Assembly: GCA_946548575.1 (NCBI GenBank)
Contig: CAMNPT010000002.1
Span: 1,165 to 65,164, forward strand
Length of the DNA stretch: 64,000 nt
Source of the DNA: an uncultured Clostridium sp.
Lineage (GTDB): Bacteria > Bacillota > Clostridia > TANB77 > CAG-508
Direction of reading: 5' to 3'
A model generated the notes under the pieces. The model was not told the DNA's origin, did not search any database, and saw nothing but the letters and a program-made list of their open reading frames with translations. This document shows, in pieces, positions 1 through 6,097 of this stretch. The stretch's first letter is position 1, and the number at the start of each line of letters is the position of its first letter. The position numbers and the translations under genes were made by a program.

Positions 1-287
1 GTAAAAAAACCTTTTTCTTTTATTTCATCAGTTGAATATAATTCTACTTCTTCTCTTTTACTTAATAGTTCCTCTATAGTATAATCTAATTTAGAATCAT
101 CTGATAAGGAATAATAAATCATAATGTCTCCCAGATAAGCACACATTACGTCTATATCATTTCCCGAAAAATCTAAAAGTTTTTTCATAAAGTCTTTGTT
201 ATTTATTAATACTTGTATTTGATTTTTTTCTCTTTTTTTGCTAGTAATCATTTTATTTAATTTTGTTATGAAATATTTTATTTCCAT
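1..287 (-). CDS. hypothetical protein, N-terminal part only (gene runs off the left edge)
   Basis: Own minus-strand reading: ATG at 287-285 preceded by GAGGAA; open frame MEIKYFITKLNKMITSKKREKNQIQVL... continues to position 1. It is absent from the ORF track because no stop lies in the window. No recognisable domain. Confidence 0.4.
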   Translation of the reverse strand, partial: MEIKYFITKLNKMITSKKREKNQIQVLINNKDFMKKLLDFSGNDIDVMCAYLGDIMIYYSLSDDSKLDYTIEELLSKREEVELYSTDEIKEKGFF

Positions 288-448
288 ATTAAATCAAAAT
301 TCCTCATTTCTTAAACTCTTGTTAATTTTTTATTAACTTTCATATATCTTTTATTTTTGTTACAACAAACTACTAAGCCTTTCATATCGTATTAAATAAT
401 TGTTTTTAATATTTTATCATTTTTTTATATTTTTTTCAAGATTTTACC

Positions 449-468
449 ACTGTCACTAGACAGTGGAC
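449..468. repeat. perfect 8-bp inverted repeat CCACTGTC-ACTA-GACAGTGG (operator- or hairpin-like)
   Basis: Read directly. It sits just upstream of a TTGAAA-17-TAAAAT promoter-like sequence for the leftward gene at 1-287. Confidence 0.35.
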
Positions 469-521
469 ACTTTTTATTTTTCTTCAGTATTTTCAATGGT
501 TTTAGAGTTTCATTTTTATTC

Positions 522-576
522 TAGATACAAATTAGATACAAAAAATTTCTTCAATTTGTATCTAAATTTGTATCTA
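522..576. repeat. palindromic array of four GTATCTA motifs (TAGATACAAATTAGATACA ... TGTATCTAAATTTGTATCTA)
   Basis: Read directly: two motif copies per arm and a 16-nt AT-rich spacer. The same heptamer recurs at 786-809 and 3260-3304. Confidence 0.6.
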
Positions 577-628
577 ATTTCATTTTTCAAAATTCTTAAA
601 CATAGAAAAAAGCCCGAGAAATCGGACT

Positions 629-780
629 TTATTGATTTCTTCCATGACAATTTTTATACTTCTTACCACTTCCACATGGCTTTTAATCCTCGTGCTTTTG
701 CATAGTCATTTCTTCCGAAAACAGCCTAAATTCACCTTTTTGGTCCTAAACTTTCCATTAACTTTCTTGCTCATCCGGCG
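629..780 (-). pseudogene. decayed duplicate of the secA 3' end (SEC-C zinc-motif tail), with its own terminator at 605-628
   Basis: 642-679 matches secA 3354-3391 at 37 of 38 nt. The minus strand reads ..AVFGRND.. and, in another frame, [17 protein letters not shown]. Upstream similarity to the secA tail (GGACCAAAAA, GGAAGAAATGA) is broken by indels and stops. A hairpin GTCCGA-TTTC-TCGGGC plus T-run follows. Confidence 0.6.
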
Positions 781-785
781 CTCAG

Positions 786-809
786 GGTATCTAAAAAGGT
801 ATCTAAAAA
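786..809 (+). repeat. two tandem copies of the 12-mer GGTATCTAAAAA
   Basis: Read directly. Lies 17 nt beyond the stop of the 826-1716 gene. Confidence 0.7.
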
Positions 810-825
810 TCAGTATTATAAACCT

Positions 826-1716
826 TTATGTAACTTCAATTATATAAATTAAAAAATTTGAAAATGTTATAGAAGAGTTTACAAATAACTCTGCAATTGA
901 CTTATTAAGCTCTAATCTTTTATCCCCAACTCCATGTGAATCACTATTCTTATCTCTCATCTGTGAAATAGCAGTTAGGATTTTTTCAAATCCTGATAAT
1001 AATGTTTTTATTCTTATATCCAATTCATCATTTATATGCATCTTATATAAAACTTTAAATTGGTTATACAATGTATTAATATTTCCTTTTTCAGAAGGTT
1101 TACAATTTTTTTCTTCAATACCTTTAATTAGTATTTCTTCCAGTAATGTTCTTGATTTAGTTATTGCACTTTCATAATCTGTATTTTTTATTGCATTATA
1201 TGCTTCATTAGCAATTCTTTTTATATATGCTGAATCAACTTCTTCAATTTTGCTGGCAACCAATTCTATATTATTTTCAAAATCTACTATCGAAAACTGA
1301 TAAGATTGTAAATTATATTCAATATAACATTTGTCAAACGTCAAATATTTATTAATTGATTGGAATAAATTATTTACTATATCCCAGTACTTTTCTTGGA
1401 TTGATGAACCGAATCCATAAGTATAGCAATCATCAGCCAATTTTTCAAATCTTTTTATTTCTAATAACTCTTTAAAAAACAGATTTATTTTGTTATTCTC
1501 TATAATATAATCTAATAATCTATCCATATATTGCCATCTTGATAATTTTTCTTCATTATAGTTTTGAAGAAACCCTAATTTTTTTGAAAATTCGCATATT
1601 TGTATTCCTGACATGTATGGCATTTTCTCTTCTTCAAACATGTAACTTTGTACTGGGTTATCACCAATAAACAAATCAATTATCTTCCTATTTTTTAATA
1701 AATTCCAATTATTCAT
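826..1716 (-). CDS. Abi_C / HEPN-type abortive-infection-like protein (AbiJ-like C-terminal domain)
   Basis: 296-aa ORF. The C-terminal region carries an Rx4-6H HEPN-type motif (ISQMRDKNSDSHGVG) in a helical context, as I remember it from the Abi_C family. The N-terminal part is not recognised. Confidence 0.5.
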   Translation of the reverse strand: MNNWNLLKNRKIIDLFIGDNPVQSYMFEEEKMPYMSGIQICEFSKKLGFLQNYNEEKLSRWQYMDRLLDYIIENNKINLFFKELLEIKRFEKLADDCYTYGFGSSIQEKYWDIVNNLFQSINKYLTFDKCYIEYNLQSYQFSIVDFENNIELVASKIEEVDSAYIKRIANEAYNAIKNTDYESAITKSRTLLEEILIKGIEEKNCKPSEKGNINTLYNQFKVLYKMHINDELDIRIKTLLSGFEKILTAISQMRDKNSDSHGVGDKRLELNKSIAELFVNSSITFSNFLIYIIEVT

Positions 1717-1746
1717 CTCTAACCATCTCCAAAAATTTTTTTAGGT

Positions 1747-3099
1747 TTAAACTCCATTTTCTTCTAATATTCTCTTAATATCTCCATAGTTGTTTACAGT
1801 ATATTCAATCTCAATTAATGGTATTTCAAGTGTTTTGGCATAATCTTTTTTTAATTTATCATGGATTTGTTGTTTTTTGAATTGTTCTTCTCCACCAAAA
1901 TATTCAACTGACTGATAATGTTGCTTTCCTTGACATTCTATTAAACAATATGGTTCATTATTTTTATACACAATAAAATCATATGATAGCTGCATTTTAC
2001 CAGTTCCAATAAGATTTTCAAACTTTTTTTGACATTCATAATCTACTGTATTTATATAATTCTTCTCTTTAAAATATCTAATAACAAATTCTTCAAGTTT
2101 AGAATATTTCCAGCATCCACATGATTGAGTTCTACCATCCATCAATGGTGCAGCATGAACAGTTACTATATTACCACAATCACATTTACACTTAAATCTT
2201 ACATAACCCCTTTTTGAATTTTCAGCTCTTTCGATAACTACAAGTTTACCAAATCTTCTGCCACTAAGATCGTTAAAATGTGTATCACTTGCAACCTGGT
2301 CTTGATAACATCCACAAGATTGTGTATGTCCACTTTTTAATCCACTCGTACTAACTATGACTTCATTTCCACAGTCACATTTACATAACCAATGTGTTTT
2401 ATTATACTTTGACTCTACTTTTTTTATAACAACAAGCTTGTTAAATCTTTTCCCAATTAAATTTTCCGAAAAGTTATTTTTTATTACTTCTTTATGTAAG
2501 CACCCACATGATTTAGTTGATCCATAAATCAGATTATTGCCTGATGTGATTTTTTCATTGCCACAATCACATTTACATTTAAATTGAGTCCATCCATTTT
2601 TATCATCTAACTGTTCAACTACCAATAGCCTTCCGAATCTTTGACCAACCAGTTTTTTTCTATATCCTTTTCTTTTAACACTATCGTATGTATGACTTCT
2701 TAATTTGCATTGCTTACCACATGATTTTGTTTTTCCTGTTGTAACATTTGATAAATAACATTCAACCTCATTTCCGCAGTCACATTTAAATAACCATCTT
2801 GTTTGGCCATTTTTATTTTCTACCTTTCTTATTCCAATCAAATTACCAAATCTTTCGCCTGTTACATCTCTCTGTAATTTTTTTCTTCCATCTGCTCTTG
2901 CACAACCACATGATGTAGTATGATTTCTTGTTAAATTTAAACCCATTACATCTACTTCATTACCACATTCACATTTGCAATGCCAAGTTAATCTACTATT
3001 TCCATTTTTTGATATATGATTTTCCGTTTGATATAAAACAGTTAATTTTCCAAATTTTTTTCCTACTAAATCAATTCTTCTTGTCACTTTAATTTTCAC
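1747..3099 (-). CDS. protein with five tandem Cys-rich zinc-ribbon modules and a C-terminal PD-(D/E)XK / DUF559-like nuclease-fold domain
   Basis: 450-aa ORF. It has five repeats of G-x-[RK]-F-[GN]-x-L-x-[VI]...W-x-C-K-C-[DE]-C-G-N...[ST]-x-S-C-G-[CK]. The tail ...LSYDFIVYKNNEPYCLIECQGKQHY...FGGEEQF...DKLKKDY... resembles Vsr/DUF559-type endonuclease folds. The true start may be GTG at 3087 (GAGGTG 9 nt upstream). Confidence 0.55.
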   Translation of the reverse strand: MKIKVTRRIDLVGKKFGKLTVLYQTENHISKNGNSRLTWHCKCECGNEVDVMGLNLTRNHTTSCGCARADGRKKLQRDVTGERFGNLIGIRKVENKNGQTRWLFKCDCGNEVECYLSNVTTGKTKSCGKQCKLRSHTYDSVKRKGYRKKLVGQRFGRLLVVEQLDDKNGWTQFKCKCDCGNEKITSGNNLIYGSTKSCGCLHKEVIKNNFSENLIGKRFNKLVVIKKVESKYNKTHWLCKCDCGNEVIVSTSGLKSGHTQSCGCYQDQVASDTHFNDLSGRRFGKLVVIERAENSKRGYVRFKCKCDCGNIVTVHAAPLMDGRTQSCGCWKYSKLEEFVIRYFKEKNYINTVDYECQKKFENLIGTGKMQLSYDFIVYKNNEPYCLIECQGKQHYQSVEYFGGEEQFKKQQIHDKLKKDYAKTLEIPLIEIEYTVNNYGDIKRILEENGV

Positions 3100-3259
3100 C
3101 TCTTTTTTTATCTCACCTGCTAATTACATCGGCAACATTATATCACAAATGTTAATATTTTGCCACTTAGGTTTGTTTTTTTAGTGACCTATGTCACTTG
3201 GACATTGGTACATAGTTGATGAAACGCTTGCAATAAAAGGCTTTTAAGTTGTAAAAATG

Positions 3260-3304
3260 TTTTTAGATACCCTCACGGAAGGTATTTAAAAAGGTATCTA
3301 AAAA
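3260..3304. repeat. three GGTATCTAAAAA-type 12-mers (one inverted, one degenerate, one exact)
   Basis: TTTTTAGATACC at 3260-3271, GGTATTTAAAAA at 3281-3292 and GGTATCTAAAAA at 3293-3304, immediately downstream of the secA terminator. Confidence 0.65.
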
Positions 3305-3313
3305 AAAATCGGT

Positions 3314-3340
3314 ATAAAAAAAGCCCTTAATTTAAGGGCT
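3314..3340 (-). terminator. rho-independent terminator of secA
   Basis: Hairpin AGCCCTTA-ATT-TAAGGGCT abuts the secA stop and is followed by a T-run on the minus strand. Confidence 0.8.
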
Positions 3341-6097
3341 TTACGCGTTTTTACCATGACAATTTTTATATTTCTTACCACTTCCACATGGACAAGGATC
3401 ATTTCTTCCTATTTTTGGTCCTTCATTTCTTACAGTTCTATCTACATCTGTTCCAATTTTAGAACCACCATCCACACTATGAATTGCCTCAAGTGCAGCA
3501 CCTGTAATTCTCACAGTCTCTTGTCTTCTAGCTTCTCCTTGTTCTCTAATATGCATTAAAATTTTTGTTACATCAAATTTGATATCGTTTATCATTTCAT
3601 CAAACATATCAAATCCCTCTAAACGAAATTCAATAACAGGATCTCTTTGAGCATATCCACGAAGACCGATTCCATTTTTTAGTTCATCCATATTATCAAT
3701 ATGCTCCATCCATTTTTCATCAACAACCTTAAGCATTACAACTCTTTCAAGTTCTCTCATTTGTTCAGAAGTTATTTCTTTCTCTTTTTCATCAAATATA
3801 TTATGAGCTTTATTTTTTAGTTCATCAGCAATTGCTATAGAATTACTAGAATTTTCTTTTATAAAGTTTTTCATATCAATTCCAAATGTATTATTTATTT
3901 CTGTATCTAAAGCTTCTATATTTAATTCTCCATTTTCTCCTTCAACATACATTTGAGGAATTGAATCTGCTACAAAATCTATCATATCCATTACACTTGA
4001 ATGAATATCTTCTCCATCTAAAACTTGTCTTCTTTGTCCATAAATAATTTCTCTTTGTGCATTCATAACATCATCATATTTTAATACATTTTTACGAGTA
4101 CTGAAGTTTCTACTTTCTACTTTCTTTTGAGCATTTTCTACTGCATTAGATATCATTCTAGAAGCTATTGGCATATCTTCATCTGCACCTAATGAATTAT
4201 ATACCTTAGTAATCATATCTCCACCAAATATTTTCATTAAGTCATCATCTAATCCAATATAAAATCTTGATTCACCAATATCTCCTTGACGTCCTGCACG
4301 TCCTCTTAACTGATTATCAATTCTTCTTGATTCATGTCTTTCTGTACCAATGATTTTTAGACCACCAGCTTCAATTACTTTCTTCTTTTCTTCTTCAATT
4401 TCTTTATCATATTTCTTAACTAAATTTCTGAATTTTTCTCTAGCATTTAAAATATCCTTATCATCAGTTTCATAATACGTATTTGCTTCTTCAATTAATT
4501 CTTGTGAAAGATTTGAATTTCTCATTTCTTCTTTTGCTAAGAATTCACTATTTCCACCAAGCATAATATCTGTACCACGTCCAGCCATGTTTGTAGCAAT
4601 TGTAACTGCACCAAATTTTCCGGCTTGTGCAACAATTTCAGCTTCTTTTTCATGATACTTAGCATTTAAAACTTCATGTTTTATACCTTCCCTTTTTAAT
4701 AACCCTGAAAGTTTTTCAGATTTTTCAATTGATACTGTACCTACCAATACAGGTTGACCTTTTTTGTTGCTTTCTTTGATACTTTCAACAATTGCTCTAT
4801 ATTTTGCATCCTCATTTTTGTATATAACATCATTTTCATCTTTACGAATCATTGGTTTATTTGTTGGTATTGCAACAACATCTAAATTGTATATTTCCTC
4901 AAATTCAGCTTCTTCTGTCATAGCAGTACCTGTCATACCAGATAATTTGTTATACATTCTGAAAAGATTTTGGAAAGTGATTGTTGCAAGTGTTTTTGAT
5001 TCATCTGCTATTTTTACTTTTTCTTTTGCTTCTATTGCTTGATGTAATCCATTATTATATCTTCTACCATACATAATACGACCTGTAAATTCATCAACAA
5101 TTAATACTTCTCCATCTTTTACTATATAATCAATATCTTTTTTCATAACACCATAAGCACGTAATGATTGATTAACATGATGAACTAAAGTTGAATTTTC
5201 TAGGTCATTAAAATTCTCTAATCCAAATGTTTCCTCTGCTTTTTTTATTCCCTTACCAGTTAATGATGCTGATTTTGCTTTTAAATCTACTATATAGTCA
5301 TAATTTTCATTATCTTCTGCTTGTTCAAAATCTTTTACATCTTCTTCTACAATTACTTTAGGTGTTAATTTTCTAACAAAACTGTCAGCTTTTTTATACA
5401 AATCTGATGATTCATTTGCTCTACCAGAAATTATCAATGGTGTACGAGCTTCATCTATCAAAATACTATCAATTTCGTCTACTATTGCATAATTTAATCC
5501 TCTTTGAACTAATTGGTCTTTATAAATTACCATATTATCTCTTAAGTAATCAAATCCAAATTCATTATTAGTTCCATAAGTAATATCACTATTATAAGCT
5601 TCTTGTTTCTCTTTAGGTTCCATTCCTGCTATAACTAGTCCTACAGAAAGACCTAAAAATTTATATAATTTACCCATCCACTCGCTATCTCTTTTAGCTA
5701 AGTAATCATTTACAGTTATTACATGAACACCTTTTCCTTCTAAGGCATTTAAGTAAACTGGTAATGTGGCAACTAATGTTTTACCTTCTCCAGTTTTCAT
5801 TTCGGCAATTCTACCTTGATGTAAAATAATACCACCTATAATTTGTACATCAAAATGTCTCATACCTAAAACTCTCTTTGAAGCTTCTCTAACAACAGCA
5901 AATGCTTCTGGTAAAATATCATCTAATGTTTTACCCTCTTCTAATTGTTTTTTAAAATAGTCTGTCTTTTCTCTTAGTTCATGATCTGTTAATTTTTCCA
6001 TTTCAGGTTCAAGGCTATTTACCTTTTCTAATAATGGTTTTACTCTTTTTACTTCTTTTTCACTATAAGATTTAAATATTTTATTTAATACACTCAT
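3341..6097 (-). CDS. secA: preprotein translocase ATPase SecA
   Basis: 918-aa ORF with motor motifs ([29 protein letters not shown]), the C-terminal SEC-C motif [14 protein letters not shown] and an AGGAAGGA RBS. Confidence 0.97.

Follow-up and report, generated by a model that had tools for sequence, protein, structure and literature searches.

A repeated secA 3′ end and the cassettes behind it

The stretch analyzed here (64,000 nucleotides of a contig from an uncultured Clostridium species; hereafter the window) carries secA near its left edge on the minus strand. Positions 1–3391 are very probably the start of a tandem array, in which two integrase-less cassettes have been put into the last 13 codons of secA by tyrosine-integrase recombination. 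Strand exchange would occur within CATGTGGNAGTGG, where the SEC-C zinc motif has its Cys-Gly-Ser-Gly codons. secA (to 3378) would be joined at CATGTGGAAGTGG to cassette A (3377–680), and a second core at 642–679 (core′) would begin cassette B. Since the crossover falls inside the SEC-C codons, the intact secA would now end in cassette-supplied sequence (3341–3377). Read in the direction of secA, a cassette unit would comprise a replacement end (GSGKKYKNC[H/C]G..*, where the asterisk is the stop codon), a terminator, a P′ arm of TAGATAC repeats, an extended −10 promoter, one or two genes, a P-arm doublet and a spacer of ~108 nt. We infer that a phage integrase would move such cassettes, acting either in trans or, where a cassette is excised together with a tandem prophage, in cis. 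On a wider scale, the evidence tips slightly towards an undescribed integron-like system in gut and rumen Firmicutes that is built on lambda-type attachment (att) sites, and in which hundreds of self-expressing cassettes (0.7–4.2 kb) with spare secA ends are moved between distant hosts by a temperate-phage integrase.

The secA gene itself is intact (3341–6097, minus strand). Its open reading frame (ORF) encodes 918 amino acids (aa) with matches to the Pfam domains SecA_DEAD, PP_bind, P-loop_SecA, SecA_SW and SEC-C (6e-10). A repeat search finds a 38-nt SEC-C block within it (3354–3391, minus strand), which we assign as the core of the left attachment site (attL) and which contains the probable crossover segment, CATGTGGAAGTGG, at 3378–3390. 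The block recurs on the same strand as core′ at 642–679 (crossover segment 666–678). An earlier reading made from the sequence alone had described a repeat with one mismatch, and it is borne out: 37 of 38 positions are identical, and a search with the block gives two matches in the window and none in 100 dinucleotide-preserving shuffles. Ungapped similarity extends over 56 nt at 86% (624–679 against 3336–3391). The left copy has an in-frame TAA two codons upstream of the core, and its CPC motif lacks the first Cys. Leftward from 665 the minus strand reads TAAGAAGTATAAAAATTGTCATGGAAGAAATCAATAA and then enters a terminator, and the reading frame of core′ runs into a spare secA end (629–679, core′ included) with its stop codon at 629–631. 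The hairpin and T-run terminator that had been claimed for this left copy (609–630, minus strand) is present, and the other copy has one as well, past the secA stop codon (3320–3342, minus strand). The former belongs to the 5′ end of cassette B and the latter to the 5′ end of cassette A.

A second direct repeat, overlooked in the sequence-only reading, has the sequence GGTATCTAAAAAGGTATCTAAAAA and lies at 786–809 and 3281–3304 (23 of 24 positions identical, 0 expected). It is built on the heptamer TAGATAC, eight of whose 24 copies in the window fall in this 3-kb stretch. In the direction of secA, core and terminator are followed by a doublet and the cargo, and these by another doublet, 108 nt, core′ and terminator′. 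The core pair and the arm pair are thus nested and non-colinear, an order that simple duplication cannot give.

The region 629–809 is very probably a composite lambda-type attachment site, an attR/attP-like junction made up of a P-arm TAGATAC doublet, a spacer, a core that starts at CATGTGG, a spare secA end with its stop codon, and a terminator. Within it, 642–679 is the right attachment site (attR) of cassette A fused to the attL of cassette B, and the spare end is an untranslated one and not chiefly a decayed duplicate. The region 629–780 had been read as a broken, indel-bearing copy of the secA tail, and this part of the reading is doubtful. In a standard local alignment of 680–785 with the part of secA that precedes the core, the score is equalled or exceeded in 109 of 1000 shuffles, and the similarity in this segment is therefore non-significant. 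A gap-lenient scoring, picked post hoc, recovers three short colinear blocks (AAGAAA, AGGACCAAAAA and GGAAGAAATGA) with a score reached by none of 1000 shuffles. The main block, AGGACCAAAAA, lies 59–69 nt upstream of the core, in the zone where the spacers of unrelated cassettes carry CCAAAA repeats. Six extra copies, from the window and four other genomes, all begin their homology at one identical point, C(A/T)TGTGG. The coincidence with the CCAAAA zone and the shared start of homology both speak against decay as the source of the blocks, and secA likeness is absent in all eight other spacers that were compared. The segment 680–785 is thus probably an attachment-site spacer, in which some residual secA ancestry may persist.

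Recurrence, gain and loss of cassettes

The architecture of the site recurs widely. At least 120 metagenome contigs, mostly of gut and rumen samples and from many projects, match the arm-plus-core pattern TTAGATACNNNTTTAGATAC-N(98-122)-YWTGTGGNAGTGG. Among the matches listed, core-to-core spacing delimits 102 cassettes of 0.7–4.2 kb (median ~1.45 kb), mostly with one gene; 154 of 159 ORFs have the orientation of secA; the largest arrays have five cores; and the 145 cargo proteins fall into 118 families. The cargo includes GNAT acetyltransferases (11), Trp/Tyr-tRNA synthetases (3), methyltransferases, S51 peptidases, HD and NUDIX proteins and a GH10 glycosidase, and matches to defence models comprise AbiJ, ThsB, NucC, PDC-S13, BnzB and mads. 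The secA C-terminus ends at the first core of the array in 26 of the 26 loci that contain it, and prfB lies behind several arrays. Integrases are almost always absent in the ~7-kb flanks of the arrays; a few arrays include islands of the type described below for locus L039, which have different arms.

The positions of the site elements relative to the core start come from 152 cores. The P-arm doublet, which is part of the search pattern, lies at −130 to −112, the CCAAAA repeats at −80 to −20, and the core with its stop codon at 0 to +45. The P′-arm repeats are outside the search pattern and peak at +90 to +140 (direct) and +120 to +170 (inverted). An extended −10 promoter, TGnTATAAT, follows at +185 to +265 in more than half of the cassettes, as assessed over 173 cassette 5′ regions. 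A terminator past the stop codon is found behind the window's two copies and in the modules read from L104, L153 and L305. All sites in the window agree with the metagenome offsets.

Coding constraint is evident in the spare ends: of 106 unique modules, most keep CGSGKKYK.C[C/H]GK, the reading frame and the stop codon. In the part of the junction modules that lies outside the search pattern (n = 115), the first two codon positions have an entropy of 0.42 and the third position one of 1.09. Upstream of the junction core, the in-frame ORF of these 115 modules is 12 codons long in the median and never longer than 40. The spare ends are thus constrained as protein though untranslated in place, which fits a requirement that each cassette supply a working secA end on insertion.

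Two otherwise identical contigs, L178 and L261, record the gain or loss of one cassette. They match without a difference for 835 nt on the upstream side, in secA, and for more than 1438 nt downstream, and L178 has an extra 916-nt cassette with a GNAT gene. The difference is a precise site-specific gain or loss. The sole sequence common to both ends of the 916-nt cassette is the 13-nt CATGTGGCAGTGG, and the crossover is therefore located in those 13 nt. The same pair of cassettes, 100% identical from contig to contig, is found directly behind secA in L261, behind the extra cassette in L178 and behind an integrase island in L239. A cassette has also spread horizontally: it is 97.5–99% identical in five contigs, of which L221 and L296 have secA flanks that are 66% identical, and the remaining pairs that were compared have unrelated sequence upstream. 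Precise gain or loss and the presence of a near-identical cassette in divergent hosts together indicate that integrase-less cassettes move within and between lineages.

The secA site in related genomes

The comparison set consisted of 80 secA loci of uncultured gut Clostridia with 76–87% protein identity. The cargo of the window is next to secA in 0 of these 80 loci, and the site itself is found both empty and occupied by integrase genes. Four loci (L015, L016, L032 and L058) are empty, with secA joined directly to prfB. In 21 of the 80 related species a tyrosine integrase gene lies behind secA, usually in the same orientation and with its start 180–300 nt past the stop codon. Broken genes are among them, and two tandem copies occur in three loci. 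Islands that end in a displaced secA end are found in L039, L068 and L021. In L039 the island occupies 6.6 kb from secA to the displaced secA end, behind which lies prfB; the integrase of the island is intact (423 aa, with Arm-DNA-bind_4, Phage_int_SAM_3 and Phage_integrase domains). In both L039 and L068 the supplied end is GRNQ* and the displaced end GKNA*, with many synonymous differences. The empty sites, the integrase-bearing islands and the displaced ends in relatives support the claim that elements integrate into the secA 3′ end and bring a replacement end. An empty site, which the sequence-only reading had proposed to look for in relatives, exists in the four loci named; none was found for the window's own species.

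L039 and L068 have arm repeats of their own (TTGTTTGCATTTTGTTTGCA and TTGTCGCCAATTTGTCGCCAA, respectively) in the same non-colinear geometry as the window. The arm repeat lies ~60 nt past the secA stop codon and again 116–145 nt upstream of the displaced core. The order of repeats shared by the window, L039 and L068 is the layout expected once a phage-type attachment site (attP) ordered P arm, core, P′ arm has integrated. The spare end of cassette B, ..CHGRNQ*, is of the type supplied by the L039 and L068 elements, which fits an arrival of cassette B first and a later insertion of cassette A at the secA core. Two more doublet-spacer-core modules without an integrase lie behind secA in L064, a metagenome-assembled genome from goat gut.

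Some further features of these loci were observed. In L045, L058, L061, L080 and L034 the secA frame shifts exactly at the CPC|GSG boundary, which is the place of the crossover; recombination may have left these shifts as scars, or the repeated core may have been misassembled. A conserved stretch of ~140 nt after the secA stop codon, present in one sub-clade, is duplicated within the array of L064 (12740–12900, 15490–15650 and 16635–16732) and also occurs in L021, L008, L044 and the attR flank of L039. Broken integrase genes lie behind secA in L005, L007, L008, L021, L035 and L049, and the ~140-nt stretch precedes at least the L008 and L021 copies. An older type of element may have had this stretch as its P′ arm. 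The integrase island of L039 contains a gene like that for histidyl-tRNA synthetase (14602–16677), and the metagenome cassettes contain three synthetase genes of the Trp/Tyr type. Aminoacyl-tRNA synthetases carried as cargo might give resistance to synthetase inhibitors.

A temperate-phage integrase lineage with TAGATAC arms

TAGATAC doublets are physically associated with one lineage of temperate-phage integrases that inserts in secA. They adjoin its integrase genes in L153, L133, L303–L305 and L307. The order in L153 is the secA end, a terminator, a P′ arm of the TAGATAC type, a 383-aa cargo gene, a P-arm doublet, a spacer, core′ with a stop codon, a terminator and a further P′ arm, after which come a 376-aa integrase gene on the opposite strand and a cI-like repressor gene. 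In L153, then, a cassette with one gene and no integrase stands next to a prophage in a tandem arrangement. A single provirus of 35,139 nt, inserted in secA, has its two ends on L305 and L114. One end has the host secA tail, a terminator, TAGATACGTTTTAGATAC and an intact 374-aa integrase gene; at the opposite end come a doublet, 108 nt and a core whose displaced end is ...CCGKNA*.

The association follows integrase relatedness. Integrases at least 42% identical to that of L153 have a doublet 60–150 nt past the stop codon, and the more distant ones in the scan are without it. In L120 and L125 the integrases are 33% identical to the secA-targeting lineage; the arm motif and spacing are kept, and the core is the 3′ end of a tRNA gene. 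The region with the tRNA-derived core (..GGGACACCA) is located at about 4854–5100 in L120 and at 1290–1500 in L125, with arms conserved and target switched. The arm motif thus goes with the integrase lineage and the core with the target, which is the behaviour expected of arm-type sites. From position and co-occurrence, we infer that the phage integrase binds the TAGATAC repeats as arm-type sites. All integrases seen adjoining TAGATAC arms are in viral contigs. A viral scan with the doublet alone was mostly noise (93 matches, ~6 relevant). In a phage collection the closest integrases have <30% identity, and the att region matched one unannotated 5.6-kb record there, in the core only. The secA SEC-C site is used by at least two tyrosine-integrase lineages, in hosts whose secA C-terminal regions have ~38–73% protein identity to that of the window.

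Structure and cargo of cassettes A and B

Cassette A (680–3377, minus strand, as are all features of this section) has a replacement end, a terminator, a P′ arm, a promoter, two genes, a P arm and a spacer. The P′ arm (3264–3304) consists of a direct doublet, TAGATACCTTTTTAAATAC (3282–3300), and an inverted TAGATAC (3264–3270); their offsets from the core start, +91 to +109 and +121 to +127, agree with the peaks over 152 cores. A promoter-like site with the extended −10 sequence TGATATAAT lies at 3137–3166. The P arm (786–809) contains the doublet TAGATACCTTTTTAGATAC (787–805) at −126 to −108 from the start of core′, a spacing equal to that in at least 120 metagenome modules, and is separated from core′ by the spacer (680–785), which holds CCAAAA-type motifs and the short secA-tail-like blocks discussed above.

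As the sequence-only reading had it, nothing lies between the two SEC-C copies except a zinc-ribbon/nuclease-like gene and an Abi_C/HEPN-like gene, a conclusion upheld by ORFs and by Pfam, PADLOC and PHROG searches. The first gene (1747–3099) encodes six zinc-ribbon repeats and a C-terminal nuclease-like domain in 450 aa from a GTG start, or 446 aa if the start is at 3087. It belongs to a phage-type ‘HNH/homing endonuclease’ family (PHROG 374 at 7e-84, phrog_9084 at 7e-24); PADLOC and NCBIfam gave zero matches and the structure database nothing informative. A homologue of this endonuclease-like protein (~40% identity) lies directly behind secA in another species (L046, 10642–11076), with an inverted integrase gene 3 kb further on. 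The second gene (826–1716) is of the AbiJ family (PADLOC AbiJ 1.7e-59; Pfam Abi_C 1.1e-12). The AbiJ match is full-length, spanning residues 2–292, and the HEPN (Abi_C) domain is C-terminal. In these two respects the protein is like known AbiJ proteins, and it differs from them in the pairing of its gene with a zinc-ribbon endonuclease-like gene that has no PADLOC match. To judge by these families, the two cargo proteins of cassette A probably act in anti-phage defence.

Cassette B has a P′ arm at 522–576, with a direct doublet (558–576) and an inverted doublet (522–539) at offsets of +103 to +121 and +140 to +157, which fit the positional peaks of the 152 cores. A promoter-like site at 411–439 has the extended −10 sequence TGATAAAAT. 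The 5′ part of the cargo gene (1–287) continues past the left edge of the window. Contig L001 extends the sequence by 1258 nt (window x = 9486 − L001 x) and completes a gene of 443 aa, followed by a P-arm TAGATAC doublet at L001 10540–10563. The 443-aa protein matched no family in PADLOC, NCBIfam or PHROG searches. In both cassettes a perfect or near-perfect palindrome lies in the interval between P′ arm and promoter (447–466 and 3181–3200; CCACTGTCACTAGACAGTGG and AGTGACCTATGTCACT), and L178 and L261 carry a similar tract, ATGTACCAGTGCCAAAGTGG. These palindromes may be an operator or an accessory recombination site.

No tyrosine recombinase was detected in the 64-kb window by tblastn with three integrases (E ≤ 1e-2) or by two hidden Markov models run against six-frame ORFs (best E 0.1), other recombinase classes being unscreened; the statement that the window has no integrase or recombinase, between the copies or elsewhere, thus holds for tyrosine recombinases. 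The sequence-only reading had left three options: a degenerate element, one mobilized in trans, or one that reaches past the left edge. What the data favour is an element that has no integrase, retains both att sites and needs an outside integrase, and it is the neighbouring cassette B that runs past the left edge. With both sites intact, cassette A should be excisable by a cognate integrase. Base composition showed no step at the island borders.

Alternative explanations

Several observations weigh against the array reading and the phage-driven movement proposed with it. Integrases of both lineages are absent from the window. A look-up with the exact SecA protein returned the window's arrangement alone, and so gave no empty site in the same species. 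In the 180 nt of L001 that remain beyond the P-arm doublet of cassette B there is no core, and for this reason cassette B may be immobile or fixed. Among the matches listed, no metagenome locus has the terminal direct repeats of an excised circle. On the phage-type integrases Pfam finds the catalytic domain and no arm-binding domain. The short colinear secA-tail matches of the spacer fit some secA-derived ancestry. Finally, metagenome contigs might be chimeric at shared short repeats, yet these repeats (13–38 nt) fall short of the k-mer lengths with which assemblies usually finish.

The window could hold a decayed, immobile remnant of an integrase-bearing island or prophage in secA, of which the att sites and a few moron-like genes are left. 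Decay does occur at the site, as the six loci with broken integrases attest; cis-mobilizable elements (CIMEs) are described in a review as products of decay (PMC5704250); the endonuclease-like cargo belongs to phage protein families; and cassette B is without a right-hand core in the available sequence. A tblastn search found no integrase remnant in the window. Against this reading, the same build (both arms, spare end with stop, terminator, own promoter) recurs in at least 100 cassettes of 0.7–4.2 kb. Independent deletions would not repeatedly leave this exact structure. The precise presence or absence of the 916-nt cassette, the near-identical cassette in hosts with divergent secA flanks and the coding constraint on spare ends also disfavour decay, and we regard this explanation as unlikely, while still worth keeping in view. 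We think it improbable that the cassettes belong instead to an integron-like platform with a dedicated chromosomal integrase elsewhere, so that the phage integrases merely share its target and arm motif. Such a platform would suit the unidirectional, mostly single-gene arrays, their very diverse cargo with many GNAT acetyltransferases, and the near absence of integrases within ~7 kb of arrays among the matches listed. The integrases beside TAGATAC arms, however, are all in viral contigs, that of L153 stands beside a cI-like repressor gene, and L305 and L114 bound a 35-kb provirus. Moreover, no integrase lies at the secA entry point of the array in the window, the sites are lambda-type (arms and core) and not folded attC hairpins, and the cassettes bear promoters of their own.

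Explanations that dispense with site-specific recombination fare worse. If the secA 3′ end had been duplicated locally, or if an independent small SEC-C-motif protein had left a pseudogene, the two SEC-C blocks would be accounted for, as would the short colinear secA-tail-like blocks upstream of the core. Of the candidates considered under this heading, simple tandem duplication is ruled out by the non-colinearity of the arm and core repeats, and an independent small SEC-C-motif gene by the in-frame stops and the lack of an upstream ORF (here a stop precedes the core by two codons, and over 115 modules the median ORF length is 12 codons). Independent copies in other species share one and the same homology boundary, and relatives have integrases and empty sites at the same point. 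Altogether, an origin of this kind is very improbable. An assembly artefact that joined unrelated sequences at the SEC-C repeat deserves mention because the data are mostly metagenome assemblies and the repeat is conserved. It would have to have produced the same arrangement on contigs of three sources (JGI 3300002641, Logan SRR873600 and NCBI GCA_001684375.1) and the same architecture in at least 120 contigs from many projects, from identical segments of 13–38 nt, below usual final assembly k-mers; this we consider the most improbable explanation of all.

Relation to known systems

The general kind of event is already known: an element integrates site-specifically at the 3′ end of a gene, for which it brings a substitute end, and integrase-less elements then accrete in tandem. 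A CIME is an element with attL and attR that lacks integration and transfer genes and depends on an integrase-bearing partner (PMC5704250). Cassette A has both cores and both arms, no integrase, and a cargo of AbiJ and an endonuclease-like gene, and it therefore falls under this definition. No partner element can be seen in the window. There is a close likeness to the CIMEs and tandem accretion at the fda 3′ end of Streptococcus thermophilus (ICESt1/ICESt3 family), which are likewise att-flanked, devoid of integration genes, placed at the 3′ end of a housekeeping gene and arranged in tandem. Here, in contrast, the partner is apparently a temperate phage and not an integrative and conjugative element, and the target is secA. 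The elements are also much smaller (0.7–4.2 kb, mostly with one gene), very numerous and uniform, with up to five cores, and they do not look like decay products.

Integron arrays resemble the present ones in their small, co-oriented, mostly single-gene cassettes without a recombinase, in diverse cargo that includes GNAT and defence genes, and in one fixed entry site. The differences are that no integrase is found at the entry site here, that the sites are lambda-type, that each cassette has its own promoter and terminator, and that the entry site is inside an essential gene, for which each cassette supplies a replacement end. In the window no integrase flanks secA, and the junctions are built of arm repeats, a spacer and a core shared with secA and not of attC-type hairpins, the terminator being the only consistent hairpin.

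Phage 21 and e14 insert in the 3′ part of icd, a protein-coding gene of Escherichia coli, whose displaced end they replace with one of their own. Elements of that type share with the cassettes a crossover inside coding sequence, a near-synonymous replacement end and a displaced partial copy at the far junction; they differ in that the target here is the SEC-C codons of secA and in that most occupants are integrase-less cassettes and not phages. The tycheposons of Prochlorococcus are similar in repeated integration at one site that pushes older elements inward, in partial target copies and in adaptive cargo. The tycheposons that were screened have their own tyrosine recombinase and tRNA gene targets, and their integrase-less pieces are described as degenerated remnants (bioRxiv 10.1101/2020.12.28.424599).

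A full-text literature search returned no report that names the secA SEC-C codons as an attachment site. The secA SEC-C target, the phage-borne partner integrase, and the large uniform population of minimal self-expressing cassettes without IntI, attI or attC appear to be new. If the proposed integron-like system is real, the cassettes would form a shared pool of defence, resistance-like and metabolic genes and a possible route of small-gene exchange in Firmicutes, whose cargo takes in anti-phage genes (AbiJ, ThsB-like, NucC-like), GNATs, extra aminoacyl-tRNA synthetases and genes without assignment. The system would also permit direct tests of the mobilization of foreign cargo by a phage integrase. 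For annotation, extra SEC-C fragments behind secA would be marked as cassette boundaries and not as pseudogenes.

Additional observations

An Rfam scan of the window gave a single, sub-threshold match, and a tRNA search gave none. The match is to the gammaproteobacterial rimP leader (3300–3375, minus strand; 33.6 bits against a gathering score of 47); it overlaps the secA terminator and is most likely just the terminator hairpin. In L015, L016, L032 and L039, the prfB gene downstream of secA contains the classic programmed +1 frameshift site CTTTGAC.

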